From Candidatus Woesearchaeota archaeon (GTDB lineage: Archaea > Nanobdellota > Nanobdellia > Woesearchaeales > SKGA01): DNA of 46,986 nucleotides. The position numbers were made by a program, and so were the translations under genes. This document shows, in pieces, positions 1 to 44,425 of this stretch (the first letter of the stretch is position 1; each line of letters starts with the position of its first letter). The DNA is taken from NCBI GenBank assembly GCA_016926395.1, contig JAFGOT010000031.1:1-46986 (forward strand). Direction: 5' to 3'. A model generated the notes under the pieces. The model was not told the DNA's origin. It ran no database searches and worked only from the letters and a program-made list of their open reading frames with translations.

Positions 1-1662
1 ATGACTGGTTGTCATGGTTTTTGTGAACAAGGACCTATTGTTGTAATCAAACCAGAAAATATTTTTTATACAAAAGTAAAACCTGAGGATTGTGGTGATA
101 TTTTAAATGGTGTTGAATCAGGTGTTCCAGTCAACAGACTTCTTTTTAGAGAGGCACAACCAATAGATGGATCATCAGTTAACTCACCTCAAATTCAAAC
201 TCATGTTAAAGAAGTTGACTTCTACAAATTTCAGACAAGATACTTGCTTCGTCGAACAGGAGAAATTGATCCGTTTAATATTCATGATTTTCTAATGTTC
301 GGTGGGTTTCAAGGATTGCACAATGCTCTTGAGATGAAACCGCAAGAAGTTATTCAAACAGTTCTTGATAGTGGTCTTCGTGGCCGTGGTGGAGCTGGTT
401 TTCTAACAGGAAAAAAATGGTCTTTTTTGGCTAATGCAAAAGATGATGTAAAATTTTTAGTTGTAAATGCTGATGAAGGTGACCCTGGATCATTTATGGA
501 CCGAACATTAATGGAGGGTGATCCATTCTCATTAATTGAAGGTTTGCTAATTGCATCATATGCAACAGGTGCAAAGCAAGGTTATATTTATGTTCGAGCA
601 GAATATCCTGAAGCAGTTAATGTTTTAAAACATGTAATAAAAACTTGTTATGATAAAAATTATTTAGGTAAAAATATTCTTGGAAGAAAAGGATTTGATT
701 TTGATCTTGCTTTATTCTTAGGAGCTGGTGCTTTTGTATGTGGCGAAGAGACTGCTTTACTTAATAGTATTGAAGGCAAGCGTGGCATGCCAAGATTCAA
801 ACCTCCCTTTCCTGCACAAAAAGGTTTATTTGGAAAACCAACAAATATTAACAATGTTAAAACTTATGCTTATTCATCTCACATTCTTAGAGAAGGTCCT
901 GAATCTTTCAAAAAATATGGAAAAGAAGATTGTCCTGGAACTGCTGTTCTTTCTTTGACTGGAAAAGTCAATAATACTGGTATTGTTGAAGTACCTATGG
1001 GAACTAGCCTTCATGATTTGGTTTTCAAAATTGGTGATGGTGTTAAAGGCGGGAAAAAAGTTAAAGCTGTTCTTACTGGAGGACCATCTGGCGGTGCTAT
1101 TCCTGCTGACAAATTAGATATTGGTGTTGACTTTGATTCATTAAATAAAGCTGGAACTATTATGGGTTCTGGTGGGGTAATGGTTGTTGATGAAACGGAC
1201 TCCATGGTTGAGTTGGCGGATTTTTTTGTTCAATTTTCCATGTCTGAAAGTTGTGGTAAATGTGTTCCTTGTCGTGAAGGAACTTTGCGTATGCATGAAA
1301 TACTAAAAAAGATTCTTGATGGTAAAGGTGAAGAATCCGATCTTGATCTTTTAGAAAGACTTGCAAGTTATATGAAAAATACAGCTCTTTGTGGTCTTGG
1401 ACAAACTGCGCCTAATCCTGTTCTCTCAACTTTAAAACATTTCAAGAATGAGTATCTTGATCTGATTAATAATAAGCATAAAGTAAAATATTTCATAACT
1501 GATAGGTGTGTTGGTTGTCATATTTGTGCGAAAAATTGTCCAGTTCAATGTATATCTGGTAAACCTAAAGAACATCACGTAATTAACCAAGACAAATGTA
1601 TAAAATGTGGTAAGTGTTTTGAAGTTTGTCCAATAAAAGCAATAGATAGGTTGGTGGAATAA
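1..1662 (+). CDS. hydB: NuoF/HydB-like NADH-binding diaphorase subunit of a multimeric [FeFe]-hydrogenase (probably 5'-truncated by the window edge)
   Basis: Tail of a thioredoxin-like [2Fe-2S] domain (GCHGFCEQGP), FMN/NADH motifs SGLRGRGGAGF, NADEGDPG and GAGAFVCGEETAL, SLBB GGPSGG, [4Fe-4S] motif ESCGKCVPCREG...LCGLG, and a C-terminal 2x[4Fe-4S] domain. Its stop overlaps the hydA ATG (TAATG). Confidence 0.92.
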   Translation: MTGCHGFCEQGPIVVIKPENIFYTKVKPEDCGDILNGVESGVPVNRLLFREAQPIDGSSVNSPQIQTHVKEVDFYKFQTRYLLRRTGEIDPFNIHDFLMFGGFQGLHNALEMKPQEVIQTVLDSGLRGRGGAGFLTGKKWSFLANAKDDVKFLVVNADEGDPGSFMDRTLMEGDPFSLIEGLLIASYATGAKQGYIYVRAEYPEAVNVLKHVIKTCYDKNYLGKNILGRKGFDFDLALFLGAGAFVCGEETALLNSIEGKRGMPRFKPPFPAQKGLFGKPTNINNVKTYAYSSHILREGPESFKKYGKEDCPGTAVLSLTGKVNNTGIVEVPMGTSLHDLVFKIGDGVKGGKKVKAVLTGGPSGGAIPADKLDIGVDFDSLNKAGTIMGSGGVMVVDETDSMVELADFFVQFSMSESCGKCVPCREGTLRMHEILKKILDGKGEESDLDLLERLASYMKNTALCGLGQTAPNPVLSTLKHFKNEYLDLINNKHKVKYFITDRCVGCHICAKNCPVQCISGKPKEHHVINQDKCIKCGKCFEVCPIKAIDRLVE

Positions 1663-3380
1663 TGACAAAGAAAGTAACAATCACAGTTGATGGACAAAAA
1701 ATAAAAGCCAACGAAGGAGATAATTTGCTTGTTGTTTGTAAAAAGAATAATATTAACATTCCTCATCTTTGCTATTATGAAAGACTTCTTCCACAGGGAA
1801 GATGTAGATTGTGTGTTGTTGAAATTGAAGGTGGAAGAAAGCCTGTAACTTCTTGTACTACAACTGTTACTGATGGTATGGTTGTTAAAACTCATAGTAA
1901 AACTCTTCTTGAATCAAGAAAATTAAGCATGGAGCTAATTCTTGCGAATCATGATCGTAATTGTACTAGTTGTGTAAATAATCTGCATTGTAAACTTCAA
2001 AATTATGCTGATTCTCTTGGTGTTGAAGAGCAAGTATTTGGTGGCGGTCATCGAAAAGAATTTGATTTGGATTTTTCAAGTCATTCAATTGTTCGGGATA
2101 ATAACAAATGCATTTTATGTGGTAGGTGTTATAATGTTTGTAATGATCTGCAAACTGTTTATGCAATTGGACTCCAAGGTCGTGGTCATGGTTCATATGT
2201 TGCGCCTCCATTAAAACAAAATATGATGGAAAGTAATTGTGTTAATTGTGGTCAATGCGTGATTGCTTGTCCTACAGGTGCGTTATATGAAAAAAGAGAA
2301 CTGCAGCCTGTTATTGATGCATTAAATTCTGGTAAACATGTTATTGCTCAGACAGCTCCTTCTATTCGAGCTGCTCTTGGAGAATCTTTTGGAATGAAAC
2401 CAGGAACTCCTGTGACTGGGAAAATGGTTGCTGCTCTTCGTCGTCTTGGTTTTACAAAAGTTTTTGATACGGATTTAGCAGCTGACATGACTATTATTGA
2501 GGAAGCAACAGAGTTTGTTAAACGTTTCAAAGCAAAAAAGAATCTTCCTATGATTACTACTTGTTGTCCTGCGTGGGTTAAATTTGGTGAACAATTTTTC
2601 TTCGAACAACTTAATCACATGTCTAGTTGTCGTAGTCCTCAAGCTATGATGGCAAGTCTTATTAAAACTTATTATGCTAAGAAAAATAAAATTAATCCTA
2701 AAGATATAATTGTTGTTGACATAATGCCTTGTACTGCTAAGAAATTTGAAATAAGAAGACCTGAATTCGCAGGAGAAGCAGATTATGTTTTAACAACCGT
2801 TGAACTTGCAAAATTAATCAAATTATTTAATATTGATTTCTTAGATTTACCTGACGAAGAATTTGACAATCCATTAGGTAAAAGCACTGGTGCTGGAGAT
2901 ATTTTTGGTCGAAGCGGTGGTGTTATGGAAGCTGCTCTTCGTAGTGCAGCCGACATGTTAACTGGTAAAAATTTACAACACGTAGATTATCATGCTATTC
3001 GAGGTCTTGAAACTTGCAAAGAAGCAGAGCTTGAGCTTGCTGGTGAAAAAATTAAAATCGCTGTAGTTCACACTCTTGGTGAAGCAAGAAAAATAATGGA
3101 AGACATTCGAGCTGGTGAATCTCCTTATCATTTTATTGAAATAATGGCTTGTTATGGTGGTTGTATTGGTGGTGGTGGTCAACCTAGAGTTGATGATATT
3201 GATGAAGTTTTGCCTAAACGTGCTGCTGCTCTTAACAAAGAAGATAAAAGTAAAAAAATTAGAAAATCACATAAAAACCCTTATGCTCTAAAAATTTATA
3301 AAGACTTTATTGGAGAACCAGGCGGCAAGAACGCACATAAATTATTGCACACAAAATACACAAAAAGAGAGCATTTATAA
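1662..3380 (+). CDS. hydA: [FeFe]-hydrogenase catalytic subunit (group A, HydA)
   Basis: H-cluster motifs L1 TTCCPAW, L2 MPCTAKKFE and L3 EIMACYGGCIGGGGQP. N-terminal [2Fe-2S], His-ligated [4Fe-4S] (HDRNCTSC) and 2x[4Fe-4S]. C-terminal small-subunit-like RKSHKNP...AHKLLHT. Confidence 0.96.
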   Translation: MTKKVTITVDGQKIKANEGDNLLVVCKKNNINIPHLCYYERLLPQGRCRLCVVEIEGGRKPVTSCTTTVTDGMVVKTHSKTLLESRKLSMELILANHDRNCTSCVNNLHCKLQNYADSLGVEEQVFGGGHRKEFDLDFSSHSIVRDNNKCILCGRCYNVCNDLQTVYAIGLQGRGHGSYVAPPLKQNMMESNCVNCGQCVIACPTGALYEKRELQPVIDALNSGKHVIAQTAPSIRAALGESFGMKPGTPVTGKMVAALRRLGFTKVFDTDLAADMTIIEEATEFVKRFKAKKNLPMITTCCPAWVKFGEQFFFEQLNHMSSCRSPQAMMASLIKTYYAKKNKINPKDIIVVDIMPCTAKKFEIRRPEFAGEADYVLTTVELAKLIKLFNIDFLDLPDEEFDNPLGKSTGAGDIFGRSGGVMEAALRSAADMLTGKNLQHVDYHAIRGLETCKEAELELAGEKIKIAVVHTLGEARKIMEDIRAGESPYHFIEIMACYGGCIGGGGQPRVDDIDEVLPKRAAALNKEDKSKKIRKSHKNPYALKIYKDFIGEPGGKNAHKLLHTKYTKREHL

Positions 3381-3404
3381 TTCTCTTTGTAAGTTTCTTA
3401 ATTT

Positions 3405-4604
3405 ATGAAGAACAAATTATGGACTAAAGATTTTTCGCTGTTATTTTCTGGTGCTTTGGTTTCTGGTTTGGGTTCTTATGCTACTTCTGTTGCTTTAGGT
3501 TTTTTCTTATTGGATTTAACTGGTTCAACTTCTTTGATGGCAACTCTTCTTTCTATTGATTTTTTGGTTTTTGCTTTAGTCCTGCCTTTTGGTGGTTTGT
3601 TCGCAGATTTTTTTCAAAGAAACAAGTTAATGTTTTTTGCTGATATTATTAGGGGTGTTGTCGTTTTACTATTTGCATTTTTAGTTTTTAGAAATATTGT
3701 TCCTATTTGGTTTGTGGTTATAACAGTAATTTTTATTGGTTCAGGTCGAGGATTGATGAACCCAACTGTTAATTCATATACTCCAGATATTGTCAAGAAA
3801 AATAACTTACGAAGAGCAAATAGTTTCATGATGCTTTCTGATTCTGCTTCAAGTATTTTTGGCAGAGGAATTGGTGGTTTTTTATTGCAAACTTTTGGAG
3901 CTCCATTGCTATTCTTTTTTGATGGTTTAACTTATTTATTCTCCGGTATTTCTGAGTTATTTATTTCTGAGAAACGAGCGAAGAAAAAAATTAATCCAAA
4001 AAAATCTTTTTCTATGATTGCTCAAGGATTTTCTTATTTACTAAAGCACAGGTCTGCACTTCTTTTTGTAATCTTTGCAGGTGTTTCAAACTTATTTAAT
4101 GCAGTTGCTGCCATAACTTTTATTCCTTTTTTTGATTCTTATTTTTCTGCAAGTTTTTATGGTTTGTTTTTAGCTTTTTTTGGAATAGCCTATATTGTTG
4201 GAACGTTTATTGCAAGTTATATTCCAAAGAAATATTCGAAATCTAGTTTTATCTTTTCTATTTCATTTTGGCCTTTGGCTGCAGGTGCGGCTTTCTTTTT
4301 TCATTCCTTTATATCAATTTCACTTATTTATGCTATTGCTGGTTTGTTTAATGGTATTAGTAATAATTTTTTACGTTCCATTTTTCAAGTACTGGGTCCT
4401 AAAGAATTACGTGCACGAGTAAATGCTTCCGCCATGCTTTTTATTAGAATCTCCTGGCCTGTTGGAATTTTTATTGGTGGTTTGTTATCTTCTGTATTTT
4501 CATTTGCTTTTGTTATTGCAGGATCTTATTTTGTTGGTGCTTTTGTTACTATTCTATTCATTTTGTTTACTTCCATGGTTTCTGTTCTAAAAGTCTTAGA
4601 TTGA
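3405..4604 (+). CDS. MFS transporter (DHA3/macrolide-efflux-like)
   Basis: About 12 hydrophobic segments; motif A-like GGLFADFFQRNKLM; typical N-terminus LWTKDFSLLF. Confidence 0.85.
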   Translation: MKNKLWTKDFSLLFSGALVSGLGSYATSVALGFFLLDLTGSTSLMATLLSIDFLVFALVLPFGGLFADFFQRNKLMFFADIIRGVVVLLFAFLVFRNIVPIWFVVITVIFIGSGRGLMNPTVNSYTPDIVKKNNLRRANSFMMLSDSASSIFGRGIGGFLLQTFGAPLLFFFDGLTYLFSGISELFISEKRAKKKINPKKSFSMIAQGFSYLLKHRSALLFVIFAGVSNLFNAVAAITFIPFFDSYFSASFYGLFLAFFGIAYIVGTFIASYIPKKYSKSSFIFSISFWPLAAGAAFFFHSFISISLIYAIAGLFNGISNNFLRSIFQVLGPKELRARVNASAMLFIRISWPVGIFIGGLLSSVFSFAFVIAGSYFVGAFVTILFILFTSMVSVLKVLD

Positions 4605-4687
4605 TCATTTTTCAAAAATTATTTGTTTAAACTTAACTAAGTAGTGGTTACATTCTTTTTTAAACTTCGAAATTGCCATTATATTTA

Positions 4688-5662
4688 ATGTTGATTGATG
4701 ACCTAAAAGAAAAAGCTAAAGCTTCTAAAAAAACTATTGTCCTGCCCGAAGGATGTGATGATAGAGTTCTAAATGCAGCTTGTATTGCTCATGCTGATAA
4801 TTTAGCAGAAATAATTATTTTAGGTGATATTGATAAAATTAAATGGCGTGCCGGTGAGTTGAATCTTAACTTAGATGGTGTTAGTATTATTGATCCAAAA
4901 AATAGTCAATATAATCAAACTTTTTCTGATGTTCTTTATGGGCTTAGAAAACATAAAGGTCTAACTCCTATTCAAGCAAGTGACTTAGTTAAACAACCAT
5001 GTTATTTTGCTACAATGATGGTTCATCAAGGAATTGCAGATGGCTATGTCAGCGGTGCAGCTCATACAACTGCTGACACTCTTCGTCCTGCTCTTCAAGT
5101 TATAAAAACTCCTGATAAAGAAACTGTTGCTTCTAGTTTTTTTATTATGATCACTCCTGAAGATAAAATTTATTTCTTTGCTGATTGTGGTTTTGTGAAA
5201 AATCCAACGGATAAAGAACTTGCATCCATTGCTATTGCAACAGCTGATTCAGCTAAGTCTTTTGGTTTTACACCTAAAGTTGCGATGCTTTCATTTTCTA
5301 CAAAAGGAAGTGCAAAAGATCCTTTAGTTGATAAGGTTATTAGTGCTACAAGTATTGTAAAACAAAAAAGACCTGATATTCTAATTGACGGTGAATTACA
5401 ACTTGATGCTGCAATTGTTCCTGATGTTGCGAAAAAGAAATGTCCAATATCTCCTATTCAAGGCGATGCTAATGTTTTAATTTTTCCAGATTTACAATCC
5501 GGTAATATTGGTTACAAATTAGTCCAGCGTTTTGCTCATGCTAAAGCTGTTGGACCTATTGTTCAAGGTTTAAACAAACCTGTTAATGATTTGAGTCGTG
5601 GTTGTAGTGTTGAAGATATTGTTGATGTAATCGCAATAACTGCAGTTTCTTCAAAACAGTAA
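4688..5662 (+). CDS. pta: phosphate acetyltransferase
   Basis: IVLPEG.D.RVL.AA, SGAAHTTADTLRPALQ, FADC, DGELQLDAA, GNIGYKL, PVNDLSRGCS. ATG at 4688 preferred over TTG at 4673. Confidence 0.96.
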   Translation: MLIDDLKEKAKASKKTIVLPEGCDDRVLNAACIAHADNLAEIIILGDIDKIKWRAGELNLNLDGVSIIDPKNSQYNQTFSDVLYGLRKHKGLTPIQASDLVKQPCYFATMMVHQGIADGYVSGAAHTTADTLRPALQVIKTPDKETVASSFFIMITPEDKIYFFADCGFVKNPTDKELASIAIATADSAKSFGFTPKVAMLSFSTKGSAKDPLVDKVISATSIVKQKRPDILIDGELQLDAAIVPDVAKKKCPISPIQGDANVLIFPDLQSGNIGYKLVQRFAHAKAVGPIVQGLNKPVNDLSRGCSVEDIVDVIAITAVSSKQ

Positions 5663-5709
5663 CCTTTAAGAGTCTTTCATAAACCCTTGTGGTTTGTGAG
5701 GTTTTTGTT

Positions 5710-6849
5710 ATGAATATCTTAGTAATTAATAGTGGAAGTTCATCTTTAAAGTTTCAATTAATTAACCCTGCTACTGAAGAAGTTATTACCAAAGGCGGTG
5801 TTGATGGCATTGGTCTTGAAATTTGTAAGGTTAAAATTGACGGCACAGAAGATGTTATTTTTTTAGAAAATCATAAAGCAGCATTAAATTATGTTCTTGA
5901 AAGAATTGATAAGTCTCAAATAGAAGCGGTTGGTCATCGTGTTGTTCATGGTGGTGAATATTATTCTTCTCCTGCTATTGTTGACGAAACTTTAATTAAA
6001 CGTGTTACTGAGTTAAGTGAGCTTGCTCCTCTTCATAATCCTGCTAATATTCAAGGCATTATTGCTTGTCAAGAAGTTTTGCCAGGTGTTAAACAAGTTG
6101 CAGTTTTTGATACTGCCTATCATCAGACTATTCCTCCCAAGGCTTACATGTATGGTATTCCTTATGAGTATTATGAGCGTCACAAGATAAGAAAATATGG
6201 TTTTCATGGAACAAGTCATAAATATATTATGCAAAAAACAAGAGATCTTTTAAATAAAGATCCTATCACGATGATTTCTTGTCACATTGGTAATGGTTCA
6301 AGTATTGCTGCAATAAAAGATAATCTTTCTGTCGATACTTCTATGGGCTTCACTCCTTTACCTGGTATTGTTATGGGTACTAGATGTGGTGATATTGACC
6401 CTGAGATTGTTTCTTATTTAGAAACTAAAGAAGGTCTTAGTCCAAATAGTGTAAAAAATATTTTGAATACAAAAAGCGGTCTTCTTGGAGTTAGTGGTAG
6501 TTCTGATATGAGAATTATTTATCAACGAGCTGAAGAAGGAGATTTTAGAGCAAAATTGGCAATTGATATTTTGGCTTATGATATCGCAAAATACGTTGCT
6601 GCTTATGCTGGAATTTTGGGTCCTGTTGATGCAATTACTTTCACTGCGGGTCTTGGAGAGAATGCATTTTATCTAAGAGAAAAGGTTATTCATTATTTTA
6701 ATACTCGAGATGTTAGTCTTGATGTTGAACGTAATAAAAGAAATGAAACTGTGATTTCAACACTTGATTCGGTTACTAAAGTTCTTGTTATTCCAACAAA
6801 TGAAGAATTAATGATTGCTAAAGAAACGGCTAATGTATTGACACATTAG
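5710..6849 (+). CDS. ackA: acetate kinase
   Basis: ILVINSGSSSLKF, GHRVVHGG, LAPLHNP, DTAYH, YGFHGTSH, DTSMGFTPL, IPTNEELMIA. ATG at 5710 follows GAGG. Confidence 0.97.
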   Translation: MNILVINSGSSSLKFQLINPATEEVITKGGVDGIGLEICKVKIDGTEDVIFLENHKAALNYVLERIDKSQIEAVGHRVVHGGEYYSSPAIVDETLIKRVTELSELAPLHNPANIQGIIACQEVLPGVKQVAVFDTAYHQTIPPKAYMYGIPYEYYERHKIRKYGFHGTSHKYIMQKTRDLLNKDPITMISCHIGNGSSIAAIKDNLSVDTSMGFTPLPGIVMGTRCGDIDPEIVSYLETKEGLSPNSVKNILNTKSGLLGVSGSSDMRIIYQRAEEGDFRAKLAIDILAYDIAKYVAAYAGILGPVDAITFTAGLGENAFYLREKVIHYFNTRDVSLDVERNKRNETVISTLDSVTKVLVIPTNEELMIAKETANVLTH

Positions 6850-8019: not shown

Positions 8020-8148
8020 GCGGGAGTAGTTCAGCCTGGTTAGATCGCCACGCTCATAAATGCTTGTTGAGCGATGAGACGTAATTGTCAATGATTATCA
8101 ACATGTGGTGCACCGTGGAAGTCCGGAGTTCAAATCTCCGCTCCCGCA
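8020..8148 (+). tRNA. tRNA with CAT anticodon (probably elongator Met), intron about 8059-8112
   Basis: Acceptor GCGGGAG/CTCCCGC plus A, anticodon stem CCACG/CGTGG with loop CTCATA interrupted by about 54 nt at position 37/38, T arm CGGAG-TTCAAAT-CTCCG. It lacks the initiator GGG/CCC pairs. TTTATAAA at 7974-7981. Confidence 0.88.
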
Positions 8149-9345: not shown

Positions 9346-10218
9346 TTGTTTATGAGTTGGGTTTTGTTTGCTTTATTATCTGCTATGTTTTTTTCTCTTA
9401 GAGATATTTTGTCAAAACATATGTTAAAACGACATGACTCTATAGTTATTTTGTTTAATGCTGCATTTTTAGTTACTTTGCTTACTGCAATCATTTTTTA
9501 TAATTCTATTTCGTTTGTCCTTCCTGGAAAAATTCTTGGAGTTCTCTTTGTCAAGTCTGTTCTTGTTGCACTTGGTTGGTATTTTTTACTTGAAGCGTAT
9601 AAACATCTTGACATTTCAACTGCTGCTCCTCTTCTAAATTTGAGTTCAATAATTTTACTTGTTTTGGGAATTGTTTTTTTAGGCGAAACCTTAGATGGTT
9701 TGCAAGTTGTTGGTTTTATTGTATTAATATTAGGTGCTTATGCTTTGGAGTTAAAATCATTAAATAATTTTTGGGAACCTATTTCCCTTTTCAAGCAAAA
9801 ATCTGTTATTTTTATTTTTCTATCTCTTTTAAGTTTAAGTTTCAGTGCAGTTCTTGACAAAATTTTGTCCTGGCAAATTCTTCCTCAAACAATTATTTTT
9901 TACAATGGATTTGTAATTGCCCTAATTGCTTTCATTGTTATTTTGGCTAAACGAGACATTCCTGACTTTGTCTCTGTATTGCGTGAATCTCCTTGGCATG
10001 TTCTTTTTATGGGGGTTGCTAATATACTAAGTGATGTGACTTATTTTTTAGCTGTGGTAACTCCTGGTGCATTAATTACCTTAATTATTCCTCTAAAAAG
10101 ATTATCGACTGTATTTACAACTATGGCGGGTGGTCATTTGTTTAAAGAAGAAAGAATTTTTTACAAAGGAGTTATTAGTTTATTTATGGTTGGTGGTGTA
10201 TTGCTTTTAGTACTTTAG
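9346..10218 (+). CDS. EamA/DMT family transporter
   Basis: Ten hydrophobic helices in two repeats; W..FALLSA, AYKHLDISTAAPL, LGE.L, FKEE. The start may be the ATG at 9352. Confidence 0.9.
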   Translation: MFMSWVLFALLSAMFFSLRDILSKHMLKRHDSIVILFNAAFLVTLLTAIIFYNSISFVLPGKILGVLFVKSVLVALGWYFLLEAYKHLDISTAAPLLNLSSIILLVLGIVFLGETLDGLQVVGFIVLILGAYALELKSLNNFWEPISLFKQKSVIFIFLSLLSLSFSAVLDKILSWQILPQTIIFYNGFVIALIAFIVILAKRDIPDFVSVLRESPWHVLFMGVANILSDVTYFLAVVTPGALITLIIPLKRLSTVFTTMAGGHLFKEERIFYKGVISLFMVGGVLLLVL

Positions 10219-11502
10219 AAATTTTGTTATTAGTTCCTTATGATTTACTTCTGGGTGGAATTGGACGCCAAACCAGTTTGGTTTATTTGTGAATTCAATT
10301 GCTGCAATACCTTCTTTAGTTGCAAGTGTTGCTTTTATTTCTTTAATGTTTGGGGGAATTGATCGAACACCATTTTGATGCAAGAAATAACATTCTTTTC
10401 CATCAAAGCCTTCTGTAAATTCTGATTCGTTTAATTCTTCAACAACAACGGGACCGATTTCAGTAAATGAATCAAGTTCGATTTCGTTTTCTTCAGTAAA
10501 TATCATTAGTTCCATTCCCGCACAAATACCGAGAATTTTTTTATCATTTGTTAATATTTTTTTAATTTTATTTTTATATTCTAAAAATTTATTATCTTGA
10601 TATGCTGTACCTGTAATTATTATTTTTGATTGAGCTTCAGTTCCATCAATCTCACTTACTTGTTTTATTGTGTATGTTATGCCTTCATTTTTTATTATGT
10701 TGGTTATTGGTCTAATAAATTCTAATTCATATAATTTTAGTTTAGAATCAATCGTGCTTATTATTAAAACATCTTCGCCATTATTTTTTATTTTTTTATG
10801 CTGGTACTCTTTCTCATTTTTTTCTTTTTCAATAAATTCTGCTTTTTTTATGTCGTAAGTTCCTGAGTAGTTTTCATACTCTATTTCTGATTCCAAAACG
10901 TTGATTCTTTTTTTGAATAGAGGGCAGTCAAGAACCATTGTTTCTATTTCTCCTCCCTCGCCTGCTGGATTGATTTGAAATTTTTTATTATATTCAACTA
11001 ATTTAGAAATTGTTTCTTTGTTAATTTTTTTACCAAGCCATTCTTTTTCAAACGGATATGCAAACACTCCACCAATTATAACTTCAAAACCATTTTCTAT
11101 TAATTCATTTAATAATTCAACTTGATCTTGTTGCCATAATGGATTAAAACAATATAAATCTAATTCACTACAAATTTTTTGTACTCGACTTGCTTGGTAT
11201 TGACTTCCAACAGCTCCTGTAACAACTCCTTTTATGTTGTATTTTTCTTTGGCTTCTTTTATTGCATCAACCAATTCCTCTAATTCTTTTTCTTTCTCAC
11301 CTTCTGTTATTCTAGTGATTAAAGGTAAGTTCATCGATTCTGCTTGCAATGATACTAAGTTTATATTCGGAGTGTGATACATGTAGCTTTCTTTATTTTT
11401 TGATTTAATTGTTATTGCACAAACTACTTTATCTGTTTGATTTGCGAGGTATGTTGCATAGATGGAATCTTTTCCTCCACTAAGTAAAATAGCAAGTTTC
11501 AT
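10207..11502 (-). CDS. dph6: diphthine--ammonia ligase (Dph6) fused to a C-terminal class I glutamine amidotransferase domain
   Basis: PP-loop LLSGGKDS, ESYMYHTPN, GAVGSQYQ, PLWQ, INPAGEGGEIETMVLDCPLF, then a domain with LGICAGME and GVQFHPE. ATG at 11502 preferred. Confidence 0.9.
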   Translation of the reverse strand: MKLAILLSGGKDSIYATYLANQTDKVVCAITIKSKNKESYMYHTPNINLVSLQAESMNLPLITRITEGEKEKELEELVDAIKEAKEKYNIKGVVTGAVGSQYQASRVQKICSELDLYCFNPLWQQDQVELLNELIENGFEVIIGGVFAYPFEKEWLGKKINKETISKLVEYNKKFQINPAGEGGEIETMVLDCPLFKKRINVLESEIEYENYSGTYDIKKAEFIEKEKNEKEYQHKKIKNNGEDVLIISTIDSKLKLYELEFIRPITNIIKNEGITYTIKQVSEIDGTEAQSKIIITGTAYQDNKFLEYKNKIKKILTNDKKILGICAGMELMIFTEENEIELDSFTEIGPVVVEELNESEFTEGFDGKECYFLHQNGVRSIPPNIKEIKATLATKEGIAAIEFTNKPNWFGVQFHPEVNHKELITKFLKY

Positions 11503-11612
11503 TTTTCTTTTTTTTAAACTGAACATTGATTAAGTTCAATGCTTCATATTTTTTTTCTAAAACCTTTATTTATTTATAAATGTGGCTTTTAAAACCCTCT
11601 AACAAGCGAAAT

Positions 11613-16939: not shown

Positions 16940-18025
16940 TTATTCCAAGAATGCTGGTATTATTTTGGGGTTTTTAAGAACTCCTTTTTCCAATAAGAGA
17001 AGATGTTGTATGCCTATTTTTCCTGCATATAATTTTTTTAAATCTCCACCTTCTTTTACGAATTTTCTAATTTTACAAAGTCCTTGAAAGTAAGCATGGT
17101 CTTTTAAGAATCCGCCTGGTTTTTTGGTGTCTCCAAGTCCTCGTTTTATACGCACGCACATTTTGAATGTTTTTTCATCGCCTTCCTCATCTTCTTCGAA
17201 ATATGGTCTGATGCTGTTATATATATCCATGAAGCTTCCTTTTGATGCAACGCTTGTCATTAGAACATTTCTAGCTAGTCTTTTTATTATATGTGGGTTT
17301 GAAACTCCTTGTTGTTCTTCATTATAGCTGGCTAATCCTTCTTCTGTTGATAGGTAATTTGGAAGTCCTGTGCTAAATATTTTGTATTCTTGTTGTCTTC
17401 CATTTTCTGACCGAAGAGCATGCGTTCCTATTTCGTGTATTATTAATTTCTGAACATGACTTTCTGAAAAATATGTTTCATCTCTTATTGTTATTTTCTT
17501 TTTTCCACCATTCACATTAACTGTCGAACTTGCATTTTTGTTATAATTTATTTTCCAATCATTAAGTCCATATTTTTCTAGTTCCTGTCTTAATTTATTT
17601 CCTAGTTCTTGTGAGCTAATCTCTTTTTCGCTTTCTTCTACTTCTTCTATCTCTTTATCTAATGTTTCTTTAGCTTTATCTAACGTTTCTTCATCGATTG
17701 GTTCAAACAAGTGTTCAGTATGAAATTTATCTGTTCCAATATTATCAAATTGTTCTGCAAATGAGAGAAGGTAATCTTTTATTTCACAAAAAAGTTTTCC
17801 TATTTCACTGTCATTTTCTATTTTTAATTTTTTCAAATCCTCAATTTTATTTTTAACATTATATTCCTTATATTTTAGTTGAGGGTTATAATTACAATCT
17901 TTTTTTACAAATAGTTCATATTCTTCATTGGTATTTATTGGTGTTATATGTGAGTAGTCTTCAAACTCTGATCTTATTCTTGTTAACACTTCATCGATTT
18001 CTTTTAGTTCTTCTTTAGAATTCAT
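16940..18025 (-). CDS. DUF1704 / MATCAP-like gluzincin metallopeptidase
   Basis: HEIGTH (HExxxH), LRSENG, TEEGLA, RIKRG, FLKDHAYFQG, LYAGKI. Confidence 0.85.
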   Translation of the reverse strand: MNSKEELKEIDEVLTRIRSEFEDYSHITPINTNEEYELFVKKDCNYNPQLKYKEYNVKNKIEDLKKLKIENDSEIGKLFCEIKDYLLSFAEQFDNIGTDKFHTEHLFEPIDEETLDKAKETLDKEIEEVEESEKEISSQELGNKLRQELEKYGLNDWKINYNKNASSTVNVNGGKKKITIRDETYFSESHVQKLIIHEIGTHALRSENGRQQEYKIFSTGLPNYLSTEEGLASYNEEQQGVSNPHIIKRLARNVLMTSVASKGSFMDIYNSIRPYFEEDEEGDEKTFKMCVRIKRGLGDTKKPGGFLKDHAYFQGLCKIRKFVKEGGDLKKLYAGKIGIQHLLLLEKGVLKNPKIIPAFLE

Positions 18026-27528: not shown

Positions 27529-27720
27529 GTGTACTTTTTGATTCCAAGCGAAAAAGAATTTCTGGACTTTCTGAGGAAAAATCCTCATCAAACTTACACT
27601 TCTCTCTCTAAAAGATTCTCGATAGAAATGGGAACTGTTCGAGATTTGGTAAAAATGTACTCTTCTAAAATTGATGTAATAAAAATTGGAACTGCACTAA
27701 TGGTGGATGTAAAACAATGA
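27529..27720 (+). CDS. small winged-HTH protein coupled to the giant surface protein gene
   Basis: 63 aa; LDFLRKNPHQTYTSLSKRFSIEMGTVRDLV HTH pattern; AGGTG SD; ATGA overlap with the next gene. Confidence 0.65.
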   Translation: MYFLIPSEKEFLDFLRKNPHQTYTSLSKRFSIEMGTVRDLVKMYSSKIDVIKIGTALMVDVKQ

Positions 27721-30700
27721 ACAACAAAGCTACAAAAATAGGAATTTGGACGTTGTTTTTACTAGTTTTAACTCTAATATTTATGAGTGGTGCGAGTGCA
27801 ACTGTAACTTCGGTTACTATTCAGTCACCAAATCAAAACTATGTTTATTATACAAATTCAGATGTTGATGTTGATGCTTCTGTTATTTTCTCTTCACCTA
27901 CGTCTGAAGTCAATTGTTCTTTGCTTTTTGGTTATGCATTTATAGACAAAGATGCGTATTCATTAACTTCCACATCTGGAATAAATTCTTTCGTTTTTAG
28001 TCCTGACTTTTCCTCAGATGCTTCTGGAAGTACTTGGGCAGCTACTTTATATTGTGAAAACACTTCGAACTCTTTGTTAAATGCCTCTTCGACACCAGGT
28101 TTTTTTGATATAATTTATGACTCTGCAAATCCTTCTATTTCAGATAATTTCACGACTGGTAATGAAATTAGTTTAGATAGAATTTATTTTAATGTCTCTG
28201 ATGGTGAATTTGTAGACGCGGATTCTATAAATGTAACTTTTAATGGTGTTGCTGATTATACTTATGATTTTGCGAGCTCCGAATTAACTTGTAATGCTTC
28301 AGGATTGATTGTTGGTTGCAATATTCTTATTCCCGTCATCCCTGTTGGTGATTATCAAGTTTCTGTCGAGGCTTCTGATGGCGCTGGTAATACACGATCT
28401 AAATCTTTTGGAACGATGACTTTAACCAAACAGTCTCGTCCTTCATCTCATATAGTTATCACTTCTCCTTTGAATCACACTGCCGTTAATGAAGGAACTG
28501 TTAGTTTTAATTTTAACATTCAAAACGAACCTGTCTCTTTCACTAATGATTACAATTGTACTATTACAACTAATACCAGTGATTCTTACACCGAGGATAA
28601 ACATTTCACTTCTGCATCAGGTTCATTTTCTTACGATACTTTTGGTCATGAGGTTGTGGGGTGGAGTTTATATTGTTACAATGATGTACGTACTATTCAG
28701 TCACCAACTTATGTTGTATCTTTTGAAAATGCAACTATTGGTGTTCAAACAAGTCAAACTTATTTTTCACTAGAAGATGGCTTGGTTAATTATTTTGCTT
28801 TTGATTACTTAAAGAACTCCGTAAACCTGACCGATGTTTTTTCTTCATCTAGCTTTGGATCCAGTGTTGGTTTAGCGTCACATATTGGTTTTGGAAATGC
28901 GTTGTCTTTTAATGGTATTTCTGGGTTGGTTGGTTCTTATGATGCTAATGACTTTACTTTGAATCAAAATGGTTTTTCTGTATCTTTATGGTTTAGACCT
29001 TTAAGTGCAAAAGACTCATATTTGGTTAGTTCCTCAAATTCAAATTTTAGTATTAGTATAAATAGTTCTGGGTTTTTAATTAACTTTACAAATTCATCAT
29101 TGACTACTAACCGTTTGTTTGTTCCTCAAGATATGAGTTCTCTTTGGAGAAACGTGATCTTAACTAGTGATGGTTCAGATTTATTGTTTTATGTTGATGG
29201 TAACTTGGTCTTAAAACAAACTGTTGGTGATATTCAGTCAAATGTTTACGGAAGAAACATTGAATATCTTGGTCAATTATCCAACAACGATGTATTTAAT
29301 GGTTCAATTGACGAACTTCTTATTTACAATCGTGCTCTTAGTCCTTTTGAGATTAATTTACTTGCTGGAACTCAAACGCCTTATGATACTTCAACTCATG
29401 GCGACCGTTCATTATTTACGGTAATTCCTACTAATGATTATTGGAATTATCTTAATTGTTCATTATATGTTAACAACACTTATGTTGATTCCGCAGATGT
29501 TCAAAATGGAACTCGTTATACTTTTGTTTATGATATTTTATCTGATGATAATTTCAATTGGTATTTTTCTTGTACTGATACATTTAGAAATTTATCTTCC
29601 TCAAGTAAATCTGTTGTTGTTGATTATACTCCTATCGCTCCTTTGATGCTTCCTTTAAATACTTCAACTAGTAATAAATCAATTAATATAGTTGGTGCGC
29701 TAGGGATGGCAGGAGATTTAACTTTAACGTCTCTAGTTCAAGCTTATTTTGGAACTGCAACTAATACTTCCTCAACTATTCAAAACCACTCTAATTATAT
29801 TGGTGGAGGTACAGTTACTAATTCTGTTAATGCGTACGCTTTTAGAGTTAATCGATCTACTTTAGATCCTGGTGTTGATGCTTATCTTTCTGTTATGAAA
29901 AGTGGTTATGTCGCAGTTAATGCAGACATTAATACTTTGTTTGCTAGTGCTAATTCGTTTAATCCCAATCTTGAGTTTTTAGAAATTGTTAATGTGACGC
30001 CTTTCCAAGGAACATTTGTTATTGAACTTGCTCAAGACATGTTGGTTAATTTAGTTGCTGGAAATAGTGTTGTTTTCTTCACAAGCCCAAAACCTTTGGG
30101 TTGGTTTAACGCTAGTTTTGATTTGTTATCAGGATTGAATGAAATGAGCGTTGAAGGAATTGTTCATAATACTGTTGGTCCTTATTCTTCTTTTAACATT
30201 TACTATGATGATTTGTTGCCTAATTTAATACAAGGTCCTTGGTTGTCTGCTATTGGTAAACCTTGGTCTTTAGGTTTTAATGTTACTGATGATTATGGTT
30301 TAGATGATACTAGTATTTATGCTATAATTAACAACTCTTTAACTTCTAGAACTTTTAATGTTAGCAATTCTTCAGAAATACAATGTAATTCTAATGCTTT
30401 TAATGCAAGTTGTACTTTATATGTTCCTTCCTCTTTAACAAACGGAATTTACAATATTACTTTGTTCGCAAATGATGTTGCAGGCAACACAGGAAATTCT
30501 TCTGGTCACGAGGTATATATTCGTTCATCAATAAGTGCAGTTACACAAATTAATGATACTTATAGTAACGCATCAAACGGAACGATACTTGTTAATTGGA
30601 ATCCTGTTCCTGATGCATATGTTGCTTATTACAATCTATCTGTAACTAATGTTCCTGGAGCAGCTAATGTTCTTGATTGGGTTAGTGTTCCAAACACTTC

Positions 30701-33700
30701 AACAAACTACACTTTTGATAATGAAACTTTAAAAGATTATTACGGTGATTTTTTATTTGTTGATATTTATCCTGTTGATATTGCTGGTGTTACAGGTCCA
30801 ATTACTTCAACAGATGGTCTTTTGTTAGTTGATCAAACTCCTCCTGTTATGAATAATGTTTCCATTATTCCTGATAGATCTTATTGGGTTAGGTCAAACT
30901 CTCAACTTCATTTATACTTTAATTTCACTGACGATGAAACTGGGATTGCAGAATATACATATGCAATAGGTACTGCACCATATCCTCTTCCAGGTTGGAA
31001 TAGTGTTCTTGATGAAACCACAACCGTTCAAAATGATTTTGTAGTTACAGGTCTATCCTTAGCTCAAGGTGGAACATATTATGTCTCTGCACGTGCAAGA
31101 AATGGTTATCCTTTCCTTTGGGAAAATAGTCAATCACAGTATTATTCATCTAGTTCTGTGCGTGTTGATTCTGTTGAGCCTTCTGGTGGTTCTATAAGTT
31201 ATACTTCAGGTCCTTTATCGACTGGCTCAATTTTAGTTAATTATTATGTTGGAACAGATGCGACTTCAGGATATCTAAATGCTTCTGTTATGAAAAAAAC
31301 CAGTCCTTTACTTAATGGTCAATGTGGAACTTTTTCTACTCCTTATGAATTAGTTGATTGGGTTTCTTCTCCTGGTCCTGACTCTGCTTCAGTCAGTATT
31401 CAAAATGGTTTTTGTTATATTTTTGCATTATATGTTTATGATAAAGCAGGTAATTTGGATATAATTTCAGGTTTAACTGCAAATAATGTTTCTGTTGATC
31501 AAACAGAACCTTCCACTGTTGACATCACGATTGATGATGGTTCTTTAACTCCTGATAATGAAATTTCAGTTAGTTGGACTGTTAGTTCTGATTTAGAATC
31601 TGGAATTGATCATTATGAATATGCTCTTGGAAATTCAAGCAATCCTGTTGATTGGAATGAAGTTGTTGATTGGACTAATATTAGTTATGTTAATACATCT
31701 TTGATAATGTCAAATCTAAACTTAACACATTTAGAAACATATTATTTCAAACTTCGAGCTTGGAATCATCATGGATTATTTTCCACTGCAGTTTCAAATC
31801 CAATAACTTATGTTGATTTAATAGTTCCTCAACCTTTGGTTGTCAAACAAGTTGGCTTAGACACAACTTATCCTTGGGTTGATAATACTAGCGATGGAAA
31901 CACAACAATATTATTTACGGGCGAAGATAATTTAGCTTCTTGTGTGTGGTCTTACTATGATATAGAATATCTAAATCCTGGTGCGGGAATAAATTATACT
32001 CATTCTTGTTTATCTGATGGTCAAGGAAATTATACTTGTAATATTTCAAAACCAGATGGTGTTTCTGCTTTAGAAGAAGGAAATTATAATGTGTATGTTA
32101 GTTGTCGAGATCAAGCAGGAAATATCCAAAGAGCAAATACAAATACGGACGTTTCTTTTGCAAAGGATGTTGGTGCGCCACTGGTTACTGTTTCAGGCAT
32201 AACAAATGGGGCTTTATATAATCAAATACCTGTTTATATTAATATCCAAGAGGCAACTTTAGATGACGCTTATTATGAAGTAAGAACGGGTGCAGGTCTG
32301 GTTGGAACTGGAGTTTTAACAACTGGAAATAATTCTGTAACTTTACCAATTAATCCTTTAGTTGCTGAGCATTGGTTAACTGTTTATGCAAATGATAGTT
32401 TTGGTCAAGTTAATGATACAACAAACATAACTTTCTTTGTGAATTCTTCAATTCCTTCAGGATATATTTATGCTCCAACTGAATACTTAAACAAAGATAC
32501 TAATTTAACGTTTTCAATGAGCTTCTTTAATAATTATTCTTATTACATTGAAGGGGATGGAGCAATAACGGGAGTATATTCAGGTTATTATTCTAATGCT
32601 TCAATAACTACTTTTGATGATTTCAACCTTCAGATTAATGTTTCTGACTTTGAAGATGGCGACTATACTGCAACATTAATTGTTAATAATTCTGTTAATG
32701 GAACTTTAAGAACTGACACTTATTATTTTGATTTTGTTGTTGATACTGAAATTCCAGAATACTCTGACGCGAACGATCCAGGAACTGTTTATGACAACGA
32801 AACTATTGATTTGTATATTACATCATCAGAAGAGAATGTTTCGGTAATCTTTAATGGAACTACTTATTATGCTGTTCCTGTTGCTTTTGGTGATCTTGTT
32901 GCTCCTGTTGGAAGTGGAAGGTATTGGGTTCAAATTCAACCTAATAAAGTGGATGATTTCATGGATTATATGTGGGTAATTTATGATTTGGCAGGCAATA
33001 ATGAAACTATCTCTGGAAGCGTGTTTGTGAATAATAGACAAACTAGTTTTGATGATGACATCACTACTATCTTAGACTTTGCAAATGCTGATTGGTCTTG
33101 GAACTTTGATTTTTCAGATAAAGATATTACTCAAAGATATAATGACTTTGTTTGTTCAATAGAACACAATGGTAGTTTCTCTCTTGTTAATACTCCATAC
33201 TCTTGTGTTGTGGATTGGGATTACGCTTCACCTGGTGCTTATGAATTAAATGTGACTGTTGATGAATATTCTAATGGTACTTTTGTTGATTCAATAAATA
33301 AAACAGTCTATATTAATTTCTCTAATACGGCTAATACTACTTTGATGTTGAACACTGCGTATTCTGTTTCGGGCATCATTGTTGATTCTGTTCATCTGGC
33401 AGCTTCAAGTTCTATCGAAGCAAATACTTATACGACTATGTCGCGATATGGAAACAATTTGACAGGTTTGGCTACTGTTGATTATCCTAATTCACCAAAA
33501 ATAATTTTATCTGTTGATGACATTAGACTTTTTATTAGCAATATTAGTGGCGGTGACATTGGAAATTTTGCTTTCAAGGAAAAAACATTATCGACAACTA
33601 CTTACGCTTCACAGGACTTAGGTTTAAGTTATAGATATGTTCCTCTTTATTCTTATGCAATAAATATTTCATATCCTTTCCAAACCAATGATTTGATAGA

Positions 33701-41884: not shown

Positions 41885-43165
41885 TTGAAAGTATTGATGT
41901 TTGGCTGGGAGTTTCCACCCTATTTTGCAGGCGGGGTTGGTATGGTTTGTTATGAACTAGTTAAACACTTAGCTGCTAAAAATGTTGGTATTGATTATGT
42001 CATGCCTTACATGCCTGATGATCTTTCTTCAAACCTTGCAAATTTGATTGATGTTTCTCGTTTGGTTTCAGAAACCGAACTTAAAAAATATAATTTAACT
42101 TTTTCTAGAGTCCCTTCTCTTATGGCTGCATATCAAACCTTGGAAGAATATGAACAAACTTTGCGAACATTAACTGAACAACAACCTGAAACTATTACGT
42201 CAAGAAGACGAGAAAATGACAGCACAAAAAAGATGTATGGTGAAAATTTACTTGAAGAGATTGATTTATTTGCCAAAAGAGTAGCTGCCATGATTGAAAA
42301 AGGTGCTTTTCGTGATTGTGATGTTATCCATGCACATGATTGGACAACCGGACGAGCTGCTGCTGTTGCAAAAAGGATGCTTGGTAAACCTATGATTATA
42401 CACTGTCACATCACTGAAATTAATAAAAATGCAGGCGCGGGTGTTACGCCTGAAGTTTATGCTGTTGAAAGAGAGAACTTTATGGCTGCTGACAAAGTAG
42501 TTGCAATAAGTGGTCTGATTAAGCAAACACTTATTGATCACTATGGTGTTCCTGAAGAAAAAATTGAGCTAGTTCATAACGGTGGCGTTGAAATGGGCCC
42601 TGTTAAAGTGACTAGTCATGAATTTAAGGGCGACCAGAAAATCGTTTCTTACATGGGTCGGATTACTGGGATGAAAGGACCGCTTAATTTTATTGACGTG
42701 GCAAACCTTGTTTTAAAACATGTTCCTAATACTAAATTTATAATTGCAGGCAGTGGAGATCAACTTCAAGCTTGCATTGACAAAGTTAATGCTTGTGGTA
42801 TTTCTGAAAAAGTTTATTTTCATGGATTTTACACTCGAGATGAAGCTGAGTTATTTTATGACTTATCTGATGTCTTTGTCCTGCCATCTTTACTTGAGCC
42901 CTTTGGCGTCACACCTCTAGAGGCTATGAGTAAGGACACTCCAACCGTGGTCACGAAACAATCCGGTGTTTCAGAAGTTATTGATCACGCGTTCAAAGCA
43001 GATTTCTGGGATATTAACAAGATGGCATCCCAGATAATTTCTCTTTTATCTTACCCTGTTCTTCATGAAACTATGAAAGTTAATGGTTTCAAAGAAGCAA
43101 AAGCTACTACTTGGGAGAAGCCTGCAGGTCTTTGTTTGGATTTATATAATCGTTTAAGAGGTTGA
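41885..43165 (+). CDS. glycosyltransferase family 4 (glycogen synthase-like alpha-glucosyltransferase)
   Basis: LMFGWEFPP...GG.G, IHAHDW, GRITGMKGP, EPFGVTPLEAM, SGVSEV. TTG start after GAGGTG. Confidence 0.92.
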   Translation: MKVLMFGWEFPPYFAGGVGMVCYELVKHLAAKNVGIDYVMPYMPDDLSSNLANLIDVSRLVSETELKKYNLTFSRVPSLMAAYQTLEEYEQTLRTLTEQQPETITSRRRENDSTKKMYGENLLEEIDLFAKRVAAMIEKGAFRDCDVIHAHDWTTGRAAAVAKRMLGKPMIIHCHITEINKNAGAGVTPEVYAVERENFMAADKVVAISGLIKQTLIDHYGVPEEKIELVHNGGVEMGPVKVTSHEFKGDQKIVSYMGRITGMKGPLNFIDVANLVLKHVPNTKFIIAGSGDQLQACIDKVNACGISEKVYFHGFYTRDEAELFYDLSDVFVLPSLLEPFGVTPLEAMSKDTPTVVTKQSGVSEVIDHAFKADFWDINKMASQIISLLSYPVLHETMKVNGFKEAKATTWEKPAGLCLDLYNRLRG

Positions 43166-43166
43166 G

Positions 43167-44018: not shown

Positions 44019-44068
44019 ATTGGCAAATAAATGACAAAAATTCAACTTGAATTTTTAAGAGGTAAAAA

Positions 44069-44425
44069 ATGTCAACAACAAAAGCTGCAAAAAAAACAAC
44101 AAAAACAGCTAAGAAGGCTACTAAAAAAGCAGCCTCAAAAAGAATTCGAAAGAAAGAAGTCTTTGAACGTATTCCTGAAGAAAACTTTTTTGTCTTAGCT
44201 GATGGTAGGCGTGTGGATCATTATGTAACTTTAGCTCACTTGCTAGAGGAGATGGAAGAGGACATTGTTCGTCATCACGTTAATGAACTTCGTCATGACT
44301 TTGCGAATTGGATTCAAGGAGTATTCTCAGAGGAAGATTTAGCCAAAAAAATTGCAGTTGTTCACGATCCAGAAAAAATGCGATTGATTATCTATCGACA
44401 TATTATTGATAAACACTTAAAATAA
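44069..44425 (+). CDS. small protein with Lys/Ala/Thr-rich N-tail and DUF5752-like domain
   Basis: MSTTKAAKKTTKTAKKATKKAASK tail, then FFVLADG...HHVNELRHDFANWIQGVF..EDLA. GAGGT SD. Confidence 0.75.
   Translation: MSTTKAAKKTTKTAKKATKKAASKRIRKKEVFERIPEENFFVLADGRRVDHYVTLAHLLEEMEEDIVRHHVNELRHDFANWIQGVFSEEDLAKKIAVVHDPEKMRLIIYRHIIDKHLK

Follow-up and report, generated by a model that had tools for sequence, protein, structure and literature searches.

We analysed a 46,986-nucleotide (nt) stretch of DNA, hereafter the window, from a Candidatus Woesearchaeota archaeon (GenBank assembly GCA_016926395.1, contig JAFGOT010000031.1, positions 1 to 46,986 of the forward strand). Its reverse strand encodes, at 10207..11502, a single fused protein of 431 amino acids (aa) that consists of a Dph6 domain, a linker and a class I glutamine amidotransferase (GATase) domain. 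The parts of this gene, and the motifs used to delimit them, are as follows.

10207..11502, reverse strand: likely coding sequence of the fused gene (stop codon at 10207-10209)
11503..11526, reverse strand: in-frame upstream extension MFSLKKRK, from an earlier ATG in the list of open reading frames (ORFs)
10840..11502, reverse strand: Dph6 (diphthine-ammonia ligase) PP-loop ATP pyrophosphatase domain, residues 1-221, from PF01902, TIGR03679 and relatives in the Protein Data Bank (PDB)
11464..11481, reverse strand: PP-loop SGGKDS, residues 8-13, predicted to bind ATP for adenylation, from the translation
10939..10962, reverse strand: GEGGEIET motif with E182, E185 and E187, from the translation; these equal E183, E186 and E188 of PF0828 at the modelled interface with elongation factor 2 (EF-2)
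10777..10839, reverse strand: charged 21-aa interdomain linker EFIEKEKNEKEYQHKKIKNNG, from the translation
10210..10776, reverse strand: class I GATase domain of the Dph6-linked family, residues 243-431, from PF00117 and a family hidden Markov model (HMM; 157 bits)
10705..10722, reverse strand: EFIRPI, the family-specific N-terminal motif (E-F-V-x-P-I) common to fused and stand-alone members
10516..10530, reverse strand: nucleophile elbow GICAG with the presumed catalytic Cys327 at 10522-10524, from the translation
10249..10260, reverse strand: FHPE with the presumed catalytic His416 and Glu418, from the translation

Translation of these coordinates recovered all the motifs of the architecture described in an earlier note on this DNA, which was made from the sequence alone and listed a Dph6 domain, the same charged linker and a domain with GICAG and FHPE. 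In its longest version the ORF spans 10207..11526 (reverse strand) and encodes 439 aa from the first ATG, with no internal stop. The homologues and a database copy of the protein (P0002, 431 aa, 100% identical) begin at the second ATG (11502), and 10207-11502, the coordinates given in the earlier note, is therefore the likely true coding sequence. The N-terminus obtained from this start, MKLAILLSGGKDS, agrees with the consensus of the homologues, MKLGVLFSGGKDS, and places SGGKDS at residue 8, as in 67 of 82 aligned homologues. The MFSLKKRK extension is probably untranslated. With a TTTATAAATA box some 65 nt upstream of 11502, both starts, 11502 and 11526, are possible. The 3' end of the gene (10207-10218) overlaps by 12 nt the 3' end of a convergent gene encoding an EamA-family transporter (9346-10218, forward strand). 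Neither domain HMM matches any further ORF of the window. A model of this exact sequence in the ESM Atlas has, for the whole protein, a predicted template modelling score of 0.90 and a predicted local distance difference test of 0.88, values that suggest a defined two-domain arrangement.

The N-terminal half is, on sequence grounds, Dph6 proper. It matches the Pfam family Diphthami_syn_2 (PF01902) over residues 9-229 of the 439-aa form (E 1.6e-68, 230.9 bits for a gathering threshold of 23.2) and passes the curated cutoff of the NCBIfam equivalog TIGR03679 (Dph6_archaeal) with 279 bits against 197.3. Its closest solved proteins are PH1257 (2d13, 9e-53) and PF0828 (3rjz, 2e-52). The available text of a comparative study (PMC3541065) lists nine Dph6-conserved residues at the modelled EF-2 interface: S44, Y45, E78, Y103, Q104, A149, E183, E186 and E188 in PF0828. 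Mapping these through the pairwise alignment of the Dph6 half to its solved relatives gave S39, Y40, E73, Y102, Q103, A148, E182, E185 and E187 as their counterparts, i.e., nine of nine are present. Seven of them are invariant among the 82 aligned fused homologues, while Y40 and A148 are at least 90% conserved; SGGKDS is invariant in all 82, and so is the GEGGE motif.

These homologues come from the 120 best listed for the protein: 84 combine the same two domains and 36 have Dph6 alone. Of the 84, we aligned 82 and left out P0018 and P0041, which are fragments truncated at the N-terminus. The aligned proteins are about 37-77% identical to the window protein, with three at 69-76%. The length of their linker varies between 8 and 57 aa (median 21; 13 in the window protein, measured between HMM ends) and its sequence is not conserved. 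The sources named for fused homologues are Woesearchaeota, Nanobdellota, Aenigmarchaeota, Micrarchaeota and Methanothrix, and the nearest named relatives of the window protein stem from metagenome-assembled genomes (MAGs) of Woesearchaeota and Nanobdellota. Fused proteins are thus common in sequence databases, where the architecture has no name of its own: they are filed as 'diphthine--ammonia ligase', 'TIGR00289 family protein' or 'GMP synthase subunit A'.

The C-terminal half matches the Pfam family GATase (PF00117) over residues 274-435 of the 439-aa form (E 1.5e-13, 51.3 bits for a gathering threshold of 22.8), along with a partial match to Peptidase_C26 (E 1.3e-4). Class I GATases carry a catalytic triad in two motifs, the nucleophile elbow G-x-C-x-G and H-P-E, and the window protein has the complete Cys-His-Glu triad (Cys327, His416 and Glu418, within GICAG and FHPE). 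We searched the GATase half alone against 1.84 billion representative proteins (E <= 1e-3) and obtained 401 matches; the best 150 comprise 135 stand-alone proteins of 165-225 aa, 6 shorter ones and 9 fused ones. The stand-alone members carry the N-terminus of the fused domain (I-S-T-C..K-L-H..E-F-V-x-P-I) in addition to GICAG and FHPEV. A profile search returned 2044 clusters at E <= 1e-3, whose source names are 'GMP synthase-like glutamine amidotransferase', 'hypothetical protein' and similar, and the ESM Atlas clusters nearest to the window domain are archaeal stand-alone GATases of 178-194 aa. These similarities place the GATase half in a separate family of proteins of about 180 aa, most of them archaeal. 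The window domain has the features of this Dph6-linked class I GATase family, i.e., the size, the EFVxPI segment (EFIRPI), the elbow, FHPEV and the linkage to dph6, and scores 157 bits with the family HMM. Typical elbow and His/Glu motifs of the family are LGICAGMQ and FHPEV, for which the window protein has GICAGME and FHPEV. E261 and P265 of EFIRPI are invariant in the 82 fused proteins, and the E, F and P of EFVxPI are at least 90% conserved in a 136-sequence family alignment. Beyond the archaeal clusters, the Atlas similarity listing offers two leads, one cluster of 176-aa GATases from Nucleocytoviricota (0.95) and one of 209 aa whose members are mostly from Actinomycetota (0.96).

The triad is conserved across the family, including relatives as distant as 36% identity. 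The Cys is kept in 80 of 82 fused proteins, in 72 of 73 split ones (encoded by a separate gene next to dph6, see below) and in 133 of 135 stand-alone representatives. The His and the Glu are each kept in 82 of 82 fused proteins and in 72 of 73 split ones, where the sole miss is a truncated ORF. Among the stand-alone representatives, the triad residues are kept in 133-134 of 135, at 25-50% identity. We read this conservation as purifying selection on a putative glutaminase.

To place the domain in its genomic context, we retrieved 80 loci with the GATase family profile alone from archaeal assemblies (one genome per species), taking the best 80 of 460 confirmed stretches. The retrieval used a 53-row subset of the family with the patterns LGICAGMQ and FHPEV, and dph6 was then sought with the Dph6 HMM. 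Since the LGICAGMQ pattern differs from the GICAGME of the window protein, the nearest genomes are absent from these loci and none of the 80 is fused. The loci stem from Woesearchaeota, Pacearchaeota, Nanoarchaeota, Nanohaloarchaeota, Methanomicrobiales, Methanothrix-type methanogens, Thermoplasmatota and Bathyarchaeia, and the isolates with a split pair include Methanospirillum purgamenti, Methanogenium cariaci and Methanocrinis alkalitolerans. A dph6 gene lies upstream of the GATase gene, on the same strand, in 76 of these 80 loci. It is directly adjacent in 67 of the 76, either as a complete stand-alone gene (64 loci) or cut by the end of the contig (L006, L019 and L080). The two genes overlap by exactly 4 nt (ATGA or GTGA, the TGA of dph6 with the ATG or GTG of the GATase gene) in 56 of the 64 complete adjacent pairs; the others have longer apparent overlaps (three pairs) or gaps of 1-88 nt (five pairs). 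In the remaining nine loci, dph6 is found 305-2997 nt upstream, with intervening genes. Five split Dph6 partners from five lineages and four phyla pass TIGR03679 (257-289 bits against 197.3) and, like the window protein, score at most 99 bits with the models of the other DUF71-type proteins, PAB0415 and TTX_0299, whose cutoff is 250. There was no conserved neighbour among 150 genes flanking the pair.

From these results, the window protein represents the fused version of a module of two genes, dph6 and then a dedicated GATase gene, which is translationally coupled in many archaea. The earlier note had linked the GATase to Dph6 as a supplier of ammonia from glutamine, in line with the position of stand-alone GATase relatives behind stand-alone dph6 genes, usually with an ATGA overlap; it had missed the widespread two-gene module of which the fusion is one form. 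Since the two genes are overlapping neighbours in so many archaea, the final nitrogen probably comes from glutamine and not from free ammonia.

Some loci show additional features. At L080 (2-682), an HD domain (PF13328) follows the C-terminal end of Dph6 in the same reading frame and immediately precedes the GATase gene. At L058 (5474-6007) and L066 (5120-5656), a separate ORF of about 178 aa lies between dph6 and the GATase gene, and the N-termini of the two ORFs are alike. In some Woesearchaeota and Pacearchaeota, the module may have a third member, namely the intervening ORF or HD domain. A gene for deoxyhypusine synthase, another enzyme that modifies a translation factor, is directly upstream of dph6 at L074 (4215-5318), and Laminin_G_3 proteins adjoin the pair in four Pacearchaeota-type loci (L009, L012, L018 and L033).

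We then studied how fused and split forms are related, using trees of the concatenated domains that comprise 82 fused and 73 split rows; seven loci without a Dph6 match above 150 bits were omitted. In the FastTree phylogeny the fused/split label needs 10 changes, at least 6 of which are forced by well-supported branches, and in an IQ-TREE phylogeny of 66 rows it also needs 10, at least 5 of them forced. The approximately unbiased (AU) test rejects a single fused clade (difference in log likelihood of 355, p-AU 5.6e-6). The window protein falls within a clade whose 33 members are all fused (support 99). Another fused clade has 27 members, holds all five proteins named Methanothrix or Methanosaeta and stands beside split pairs of Methanothrix and Methanocrinis. 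Hence, fused and split forms were interchanged several times. In a tree of the GATase part only, well-supported branches force just one change; this alignment is too short to force more, and the case for several fusions therefore rests on the concatenated trees and the AU test. As the trees are unrooted, they give no direction, fusion or fission, to these changes. The pairwise identities of the two parts correlate (r = 0.75; shuffled data reach no more than 0.08), which is what co-inheritance of the genes would produce. When Dph6 domains fused to AsnB were placed on the tree, the support of their placement was 67, with no well-supported branch. Several MAGs titled 'uncultured Methanosarcinales' (L017, L031, L035, L045, L067, L068, L073 and L078) group tightly with Woesearchaeota and Nanoarchaeota rows, with branch lengths of about 0.08 for L068 and L031, and their taxonomic labels may be unreliable.

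GMP synthetase, in which a class I GATase serves a PP-loop adenylating synthetase, either as separate subunits or fused, shares this design, and we therefore read the gene as that of a glutamine-hydrolysing diphthamide synthetase. We consider it likely that it encodes such a bifunctional enzyme, built like GMP synthetase. The Dph6 domain would bind ATP through its PP-loop and adenylate the carboxylate of diphthine on EF-2, its predicted substrate. The C-terminal GATase would hydrolyse glutamine through a thioester on Cys327, with His416 and Glu418 completing the triad. The ammonia would then reach the Dph6 active site and displace AMP to give diphthamide, and the two activities may be allosterically coupled. 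The parts of this reading that the earlier note had already put forward, and that lend themselves to sequence checks, stood up: the Dph6 equivalog cutoff is passed, the nine interface residues are kept and so is the triad in relatives.

Several observations weigh against this interpretation. The archaeal dph6 assignments themselves await experimental confirmation, according to the available text of PMC8305020. Two loci (L005 and L052) have several kb of upstream DNA yet no dph6, and L002 has none in a mere 374 nt; L029 has no upstream DNA and is uninformative. There was no dph2, dph5 or EF-2 gene among the 150 genes flanking the pair, nor in the window. Adjacency and co-inheritance are expected of any linked genes and are no proof of contact between the proteins. 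Two fused proteins that are close relatives of each other, P0105 and P0107, have Gly in place of the nucleophile (GIGSG), and the split partner at L061 (724-1287) has Ser (GISSG). The His and the Glu are kept in all three, which may be inactive glutaminases. Given these three relatives without the nucleophile, Dph6 must function in some lineages with no glutaminase, and the Dph6 part can probably still use free ammonia. Finally, the elbow of the window protein is followed by Glu (GICAGME), a residue found there in 28 of the 82 fused proteins overall, whereas 46 of the 82 and at least 90% of the 53-row family subset have Gln.

Among the other explanations, the chance that the fusion arose on this contig as an artefact, through misassembly, a frameshift or stop loss, is negligible. 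A sequencing error could in principle join two genes that overlap by 4 nt, as they do in split relatives, and we found nothing else in its favour. The join is a 21-aa linker with no frame slip at the overlap, and the two halves have similar GC contents (0.302 for Dph6 and 0.285 for the GATase; 0.191 and 0.167 at third codon positions). Moreover, among the 120 listed homologues the fused architecture recurs in 84, which stem from several sources and from independent contigs and include three at 69-76% identity, and these homologues, together with the all-fused clade of 33, refute an artefact absent from relatives, which the earlier note had held out as a way to overturn its proposal. It is also extremely unlikely that the GATase is the subunit A of GMP synthase (GuaA), found beside dph6 by chance or serving both enzymes, even if source names such as 'GMP synthase (glutamine-hydrolysing)' would have it so. 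The best solved relatives of the family are indeed the glutaminase subunits of the two-subunit GMP synthetases of Methanocaldococcus jannaschii and Pyrococcus horikoshii (E ~1e-23), but these structures align at most to positions 29-180 of the profile and leave the EFVxPI N-terminus (positions 1-36) unmatched. The window domain scores far below the cutoffs of the GuaA subunit A models (45.3 bits against 198 for NF001975, 57.8 against 172 for TIGR00888), and 32 sampled stand-alone members of the family reach at most 82 bits against 198. True GuaA subunit A genes (250-254 bits) co-occur 3-4 kb upstream of the pair in three Methanospirillum loci (L030, 2225-2788; L048, 1638-2189; L049, 1866-2462), and the GATase of the L030 pair itself scores 43 bits with the same model. 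The window domain, taken along its entire length, shares 33% identity with the Dph6-linked GATase of Methanospirillum (E 2e-23), whereas with the GuaA subunit A of that organism it shares 26% over 103 aa (E 1e-7). The fused or adjacent partner is Dph6, and not the GuaA subunit B, in the window and in 76 of the 80 loci. The sub-cutoff scores, the co-occurrence with the true subunit A and the partnership with dph6 contradict the assignment to GuaA, from which the family is distinct.

The three other explanations accept the module and differ on what it does. The GATase half could be catalytically idle in vivo, a structural or regulatory appendage of an enzyme that uses free ammonia like yeast Dph6, which we regard as unlikely. 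Characterised Dph6 uses ammonium, the three relatives without the nucleophile are nevertheless maintained, and the GATase part has diverged more rapidly, with a mean pairwise identity of 36.7% against 52.5% for the Dph6 part; against this, the triad persists in nearly all fused, split and stand-alone members, the latter at 25-50% identity, and repeated fusion is not expected of an idle domain. That the triad belongs to a hydrolase of the same pathway acting on something other than glutamine, e.g., by demethylating over-methylated diphthine or by trimming an acyl or amide group on EF-2, seems to us quite unlikely. Yeast Dph7 removes the methyl ester from over-methylated diphthine before amidation. 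Archaea have only homologues of Dph2, Dph5 and Dph6 according to the available part of PMC6143161, and an accessory hydrolase would close this gap. Peptidases share the class I GATase fold, in keeping with the partial Peptidase_C26 match, the N-terminal motif is the family's own and lies outside the coverage of the GuaA subunit A structures, the elbow is followed by Glu in the window protein but by Gln in most members, and the tight linkage to dph6 would fit any partner in the pathway equally well. Yet, the closest profile relatives are true glutaminase subunits of GMP synthetases, the G-I-C-A-G-M-Q elbow and F-H-P-E-V match the glutamine-hydrolysing consensus, and the combination of class I GATase and PP-loop synthetase is a classic architecture for a glutamine amidotransferase. 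It is very unlikely that the module amidates a substrate other than the diphthine of EF-2. DUF71/PF01902 is not monofunctional and has two or more subfamilies, with one proposed to act in B12 salvage (PMC3541065, available text). However, the window protein and the five split partners pass Dph6_archaeal and stay at or below 99 bits for the cutoff of 250 in the PAB0415 and TTX_0299 models, and all nine Dph6-specific residues of the modelled EF-2 interface are kept. The lack of diphthamide or EF-2 genes near the gene, in the window and in the 80 loci, would also fit another substrate, but it weighs little because archaeal dph genes are generally unclustered, as reported in the accessible text of the same study.

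The proposed glutamine-hydrolysing diphthamide synthetase has close parallels among known enzymes. Fused GMP synthetases have the GATase before the synthetase, and the window protein has the reverse order, synthetase then GATase. The archaeal two-subunit GMP synthetase is of the same design, with a class I GATase of about 185 aa that serves a PP-loop adenylating synthetase, as two subunits or in fusions. The acceptor is xanthosine monophosphate in that enzyme and would be a protein-bound carboxylate on EF-2 here, and the GATases differ as well, the window one being below the GuaA subunit A cutoff (45 against 198) and having its own EFVxPI N-terminal segment. In M. jannaschii, the substrate-loaded synthetase activates the glutaminase and ammonia is tunnelled, the complex is transient, and a section heading states that an artificial fusion is active (10.1101/2022.02.27.481963, the available portion). 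Dph6 itself (EC 6.3.1.14; yeast YLR143W, PF0828, PH1257) resembles residues 1-221 of the window protein, with SGGKDS, GEGGE and E values of about 1e-52 for the solved archaeal pair. The solved archaeal proteins are single-domain and the eukaryotic ones carry RidA, whereas the window protein has a C-terminal class I GATase. The earlier note's background on characterised Dph6 was accurate: the yeast enzyme uses ATP and ammonium, as given in the available text of PMC5354562, and RidA (PF01042) was found in eukaryotic forms.

The idea that a fused glutaminase could supply ammonia to Dph6 has been published. De Crecy-Lagard et al. (2012; PMC3541065), in the available text of their study, suggested that the source of the ammonia is variable, and described an N-terminal AsnB fusion to DUF71/Dph6 in a few archaea and RidA in eukaryotes. 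The AsnB glutaminase differs from that of the window protein in being of class II, with an N-terminal nucleophile, in its N-terminal position and in bringing a second PP-loop, whereas the window protein has a C-terminal class I Cys-His-Glu domain and none of the AsnB-type Pfam domains (PF13522/PF13537 and PF00733). A split-operon form of AsnB-DUF71 is not reported in the same available text. Among 65 'longer' Dph6 matches, AsnB-type fusions account for 4 (762-791 aa), RidA forms are also present and PF00117 is found in none. A similar evolutionary pattern is known in another PP-loop amidotransferase, NAD synthetase, where an ammonia-only core recruited a glutaminase subunit and was then fused to it (PMC3376133, accessible part), so that NadE and its glutaminase occur as a fusion or as two subunits; there the glutaminase has a nitrilase-like fold and the substrate is a small molecule. 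No class I GATase, COG0518 or GMP synthase neighbour of Dph6 is mentioned in the available text and two text supplements of PMC3541065, nor a class I GATase partner in the accessible part of Narrowe et al. (2018). Likewise, full-text literature searches, with subscription-only papers outside their scope, found no published description of such a partner. The earlier note knew of no description of the architecture; this stands for the class I fusion in the literature, but not for databases, where the architecture is common if unnamed, nor for the AsnB-type fusion, discussed in 2012. The logic of the enzyme is textbook knowledge and a glutaminase helper for Dph6 has been suggested in print before, while we found no publication on the class I partner, on its dedicated GATase family, on the operon with translational coupling or on the recurrence of the fusion.

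The rest of the window contains other elements of interest. A fermentative gene set occupies 1-6849 (forward strand) and encodes a NuoF-like flavoprotein, the large subunit of an [FeFe]-hydrogenase, an MFS transporter, phosphotransacetylase and acetate kinase. A 129-nt tRNA was identified with Rfam at 8020-8148 (forward strand, 47.8 bits) and is not listed by ARAGORN; it is probably an intron-containing archaeal tRNA. The 361-aa protein encoded at 16940-18025 (reverse strand) matches the Pfam family MATCAP (microtubule-associated tyrosine carboxypeptidase family, E 5e-49), which is unexpected in a small archaeon. A giant ORF of 2326 aa (27717-34697, forward strand) has Laminin_G_3 and Ig-like matches as its sole domains, and its product is probably a surface protein. 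At 41885-46318 (forward strand) there is a glycogen/starch gene cluster with a GT4/GT5-type glycosyltransferase, a GH57 fragment and a 600-aa protein that matches the eukaryote-type Glycogen_syn (PF05693, E 5.8e-139). Eleven unannotated ORFs of the window gave sub-threshold matches only in a Pfam search at E <= 0.01.

To our knowledge, diphthamide on EF-2 is a universal modification of Archaea and eukaryotes, and the last enzyme of its synthesis is named an ammonia ligase. We lean towards the view that a large part of Archaea, including DPANN lineages, Methanomicrobiales, Methanothrix and some Bathyarchaeia and Thermoplasmatota, finishes diphthamide with Dph6 and a dedicated class I glutaminase, either as coupled subunits or as a fusion that arose repeatedly. 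If so, the archaeal 'GMP synthase-like amidotransferase' family (2044 clusters) would be misnamed and really be the glutaminase subunit of diphthamide synthetase, which would give a function to a large misannotated protein family, and EC 6.3.1.14 would have to be joined by a separate EC entry for the glutamine-hydrolysing reaction. Many archaea would use glutamine as the nitrogen source of diphthamide, which would answer the question left open by the 2012 comparative study, and a protein-modifying member would be added to the enzymes made of a class I GATase and a PP-loop synthetase, so far typified by GMP synthetase. The existence of natural fused and split versions provides a system to study how a glutaminase is coupled to a synthetase that acts on a whole protein, and the isolates with a split pair put its biochemistry within reach.

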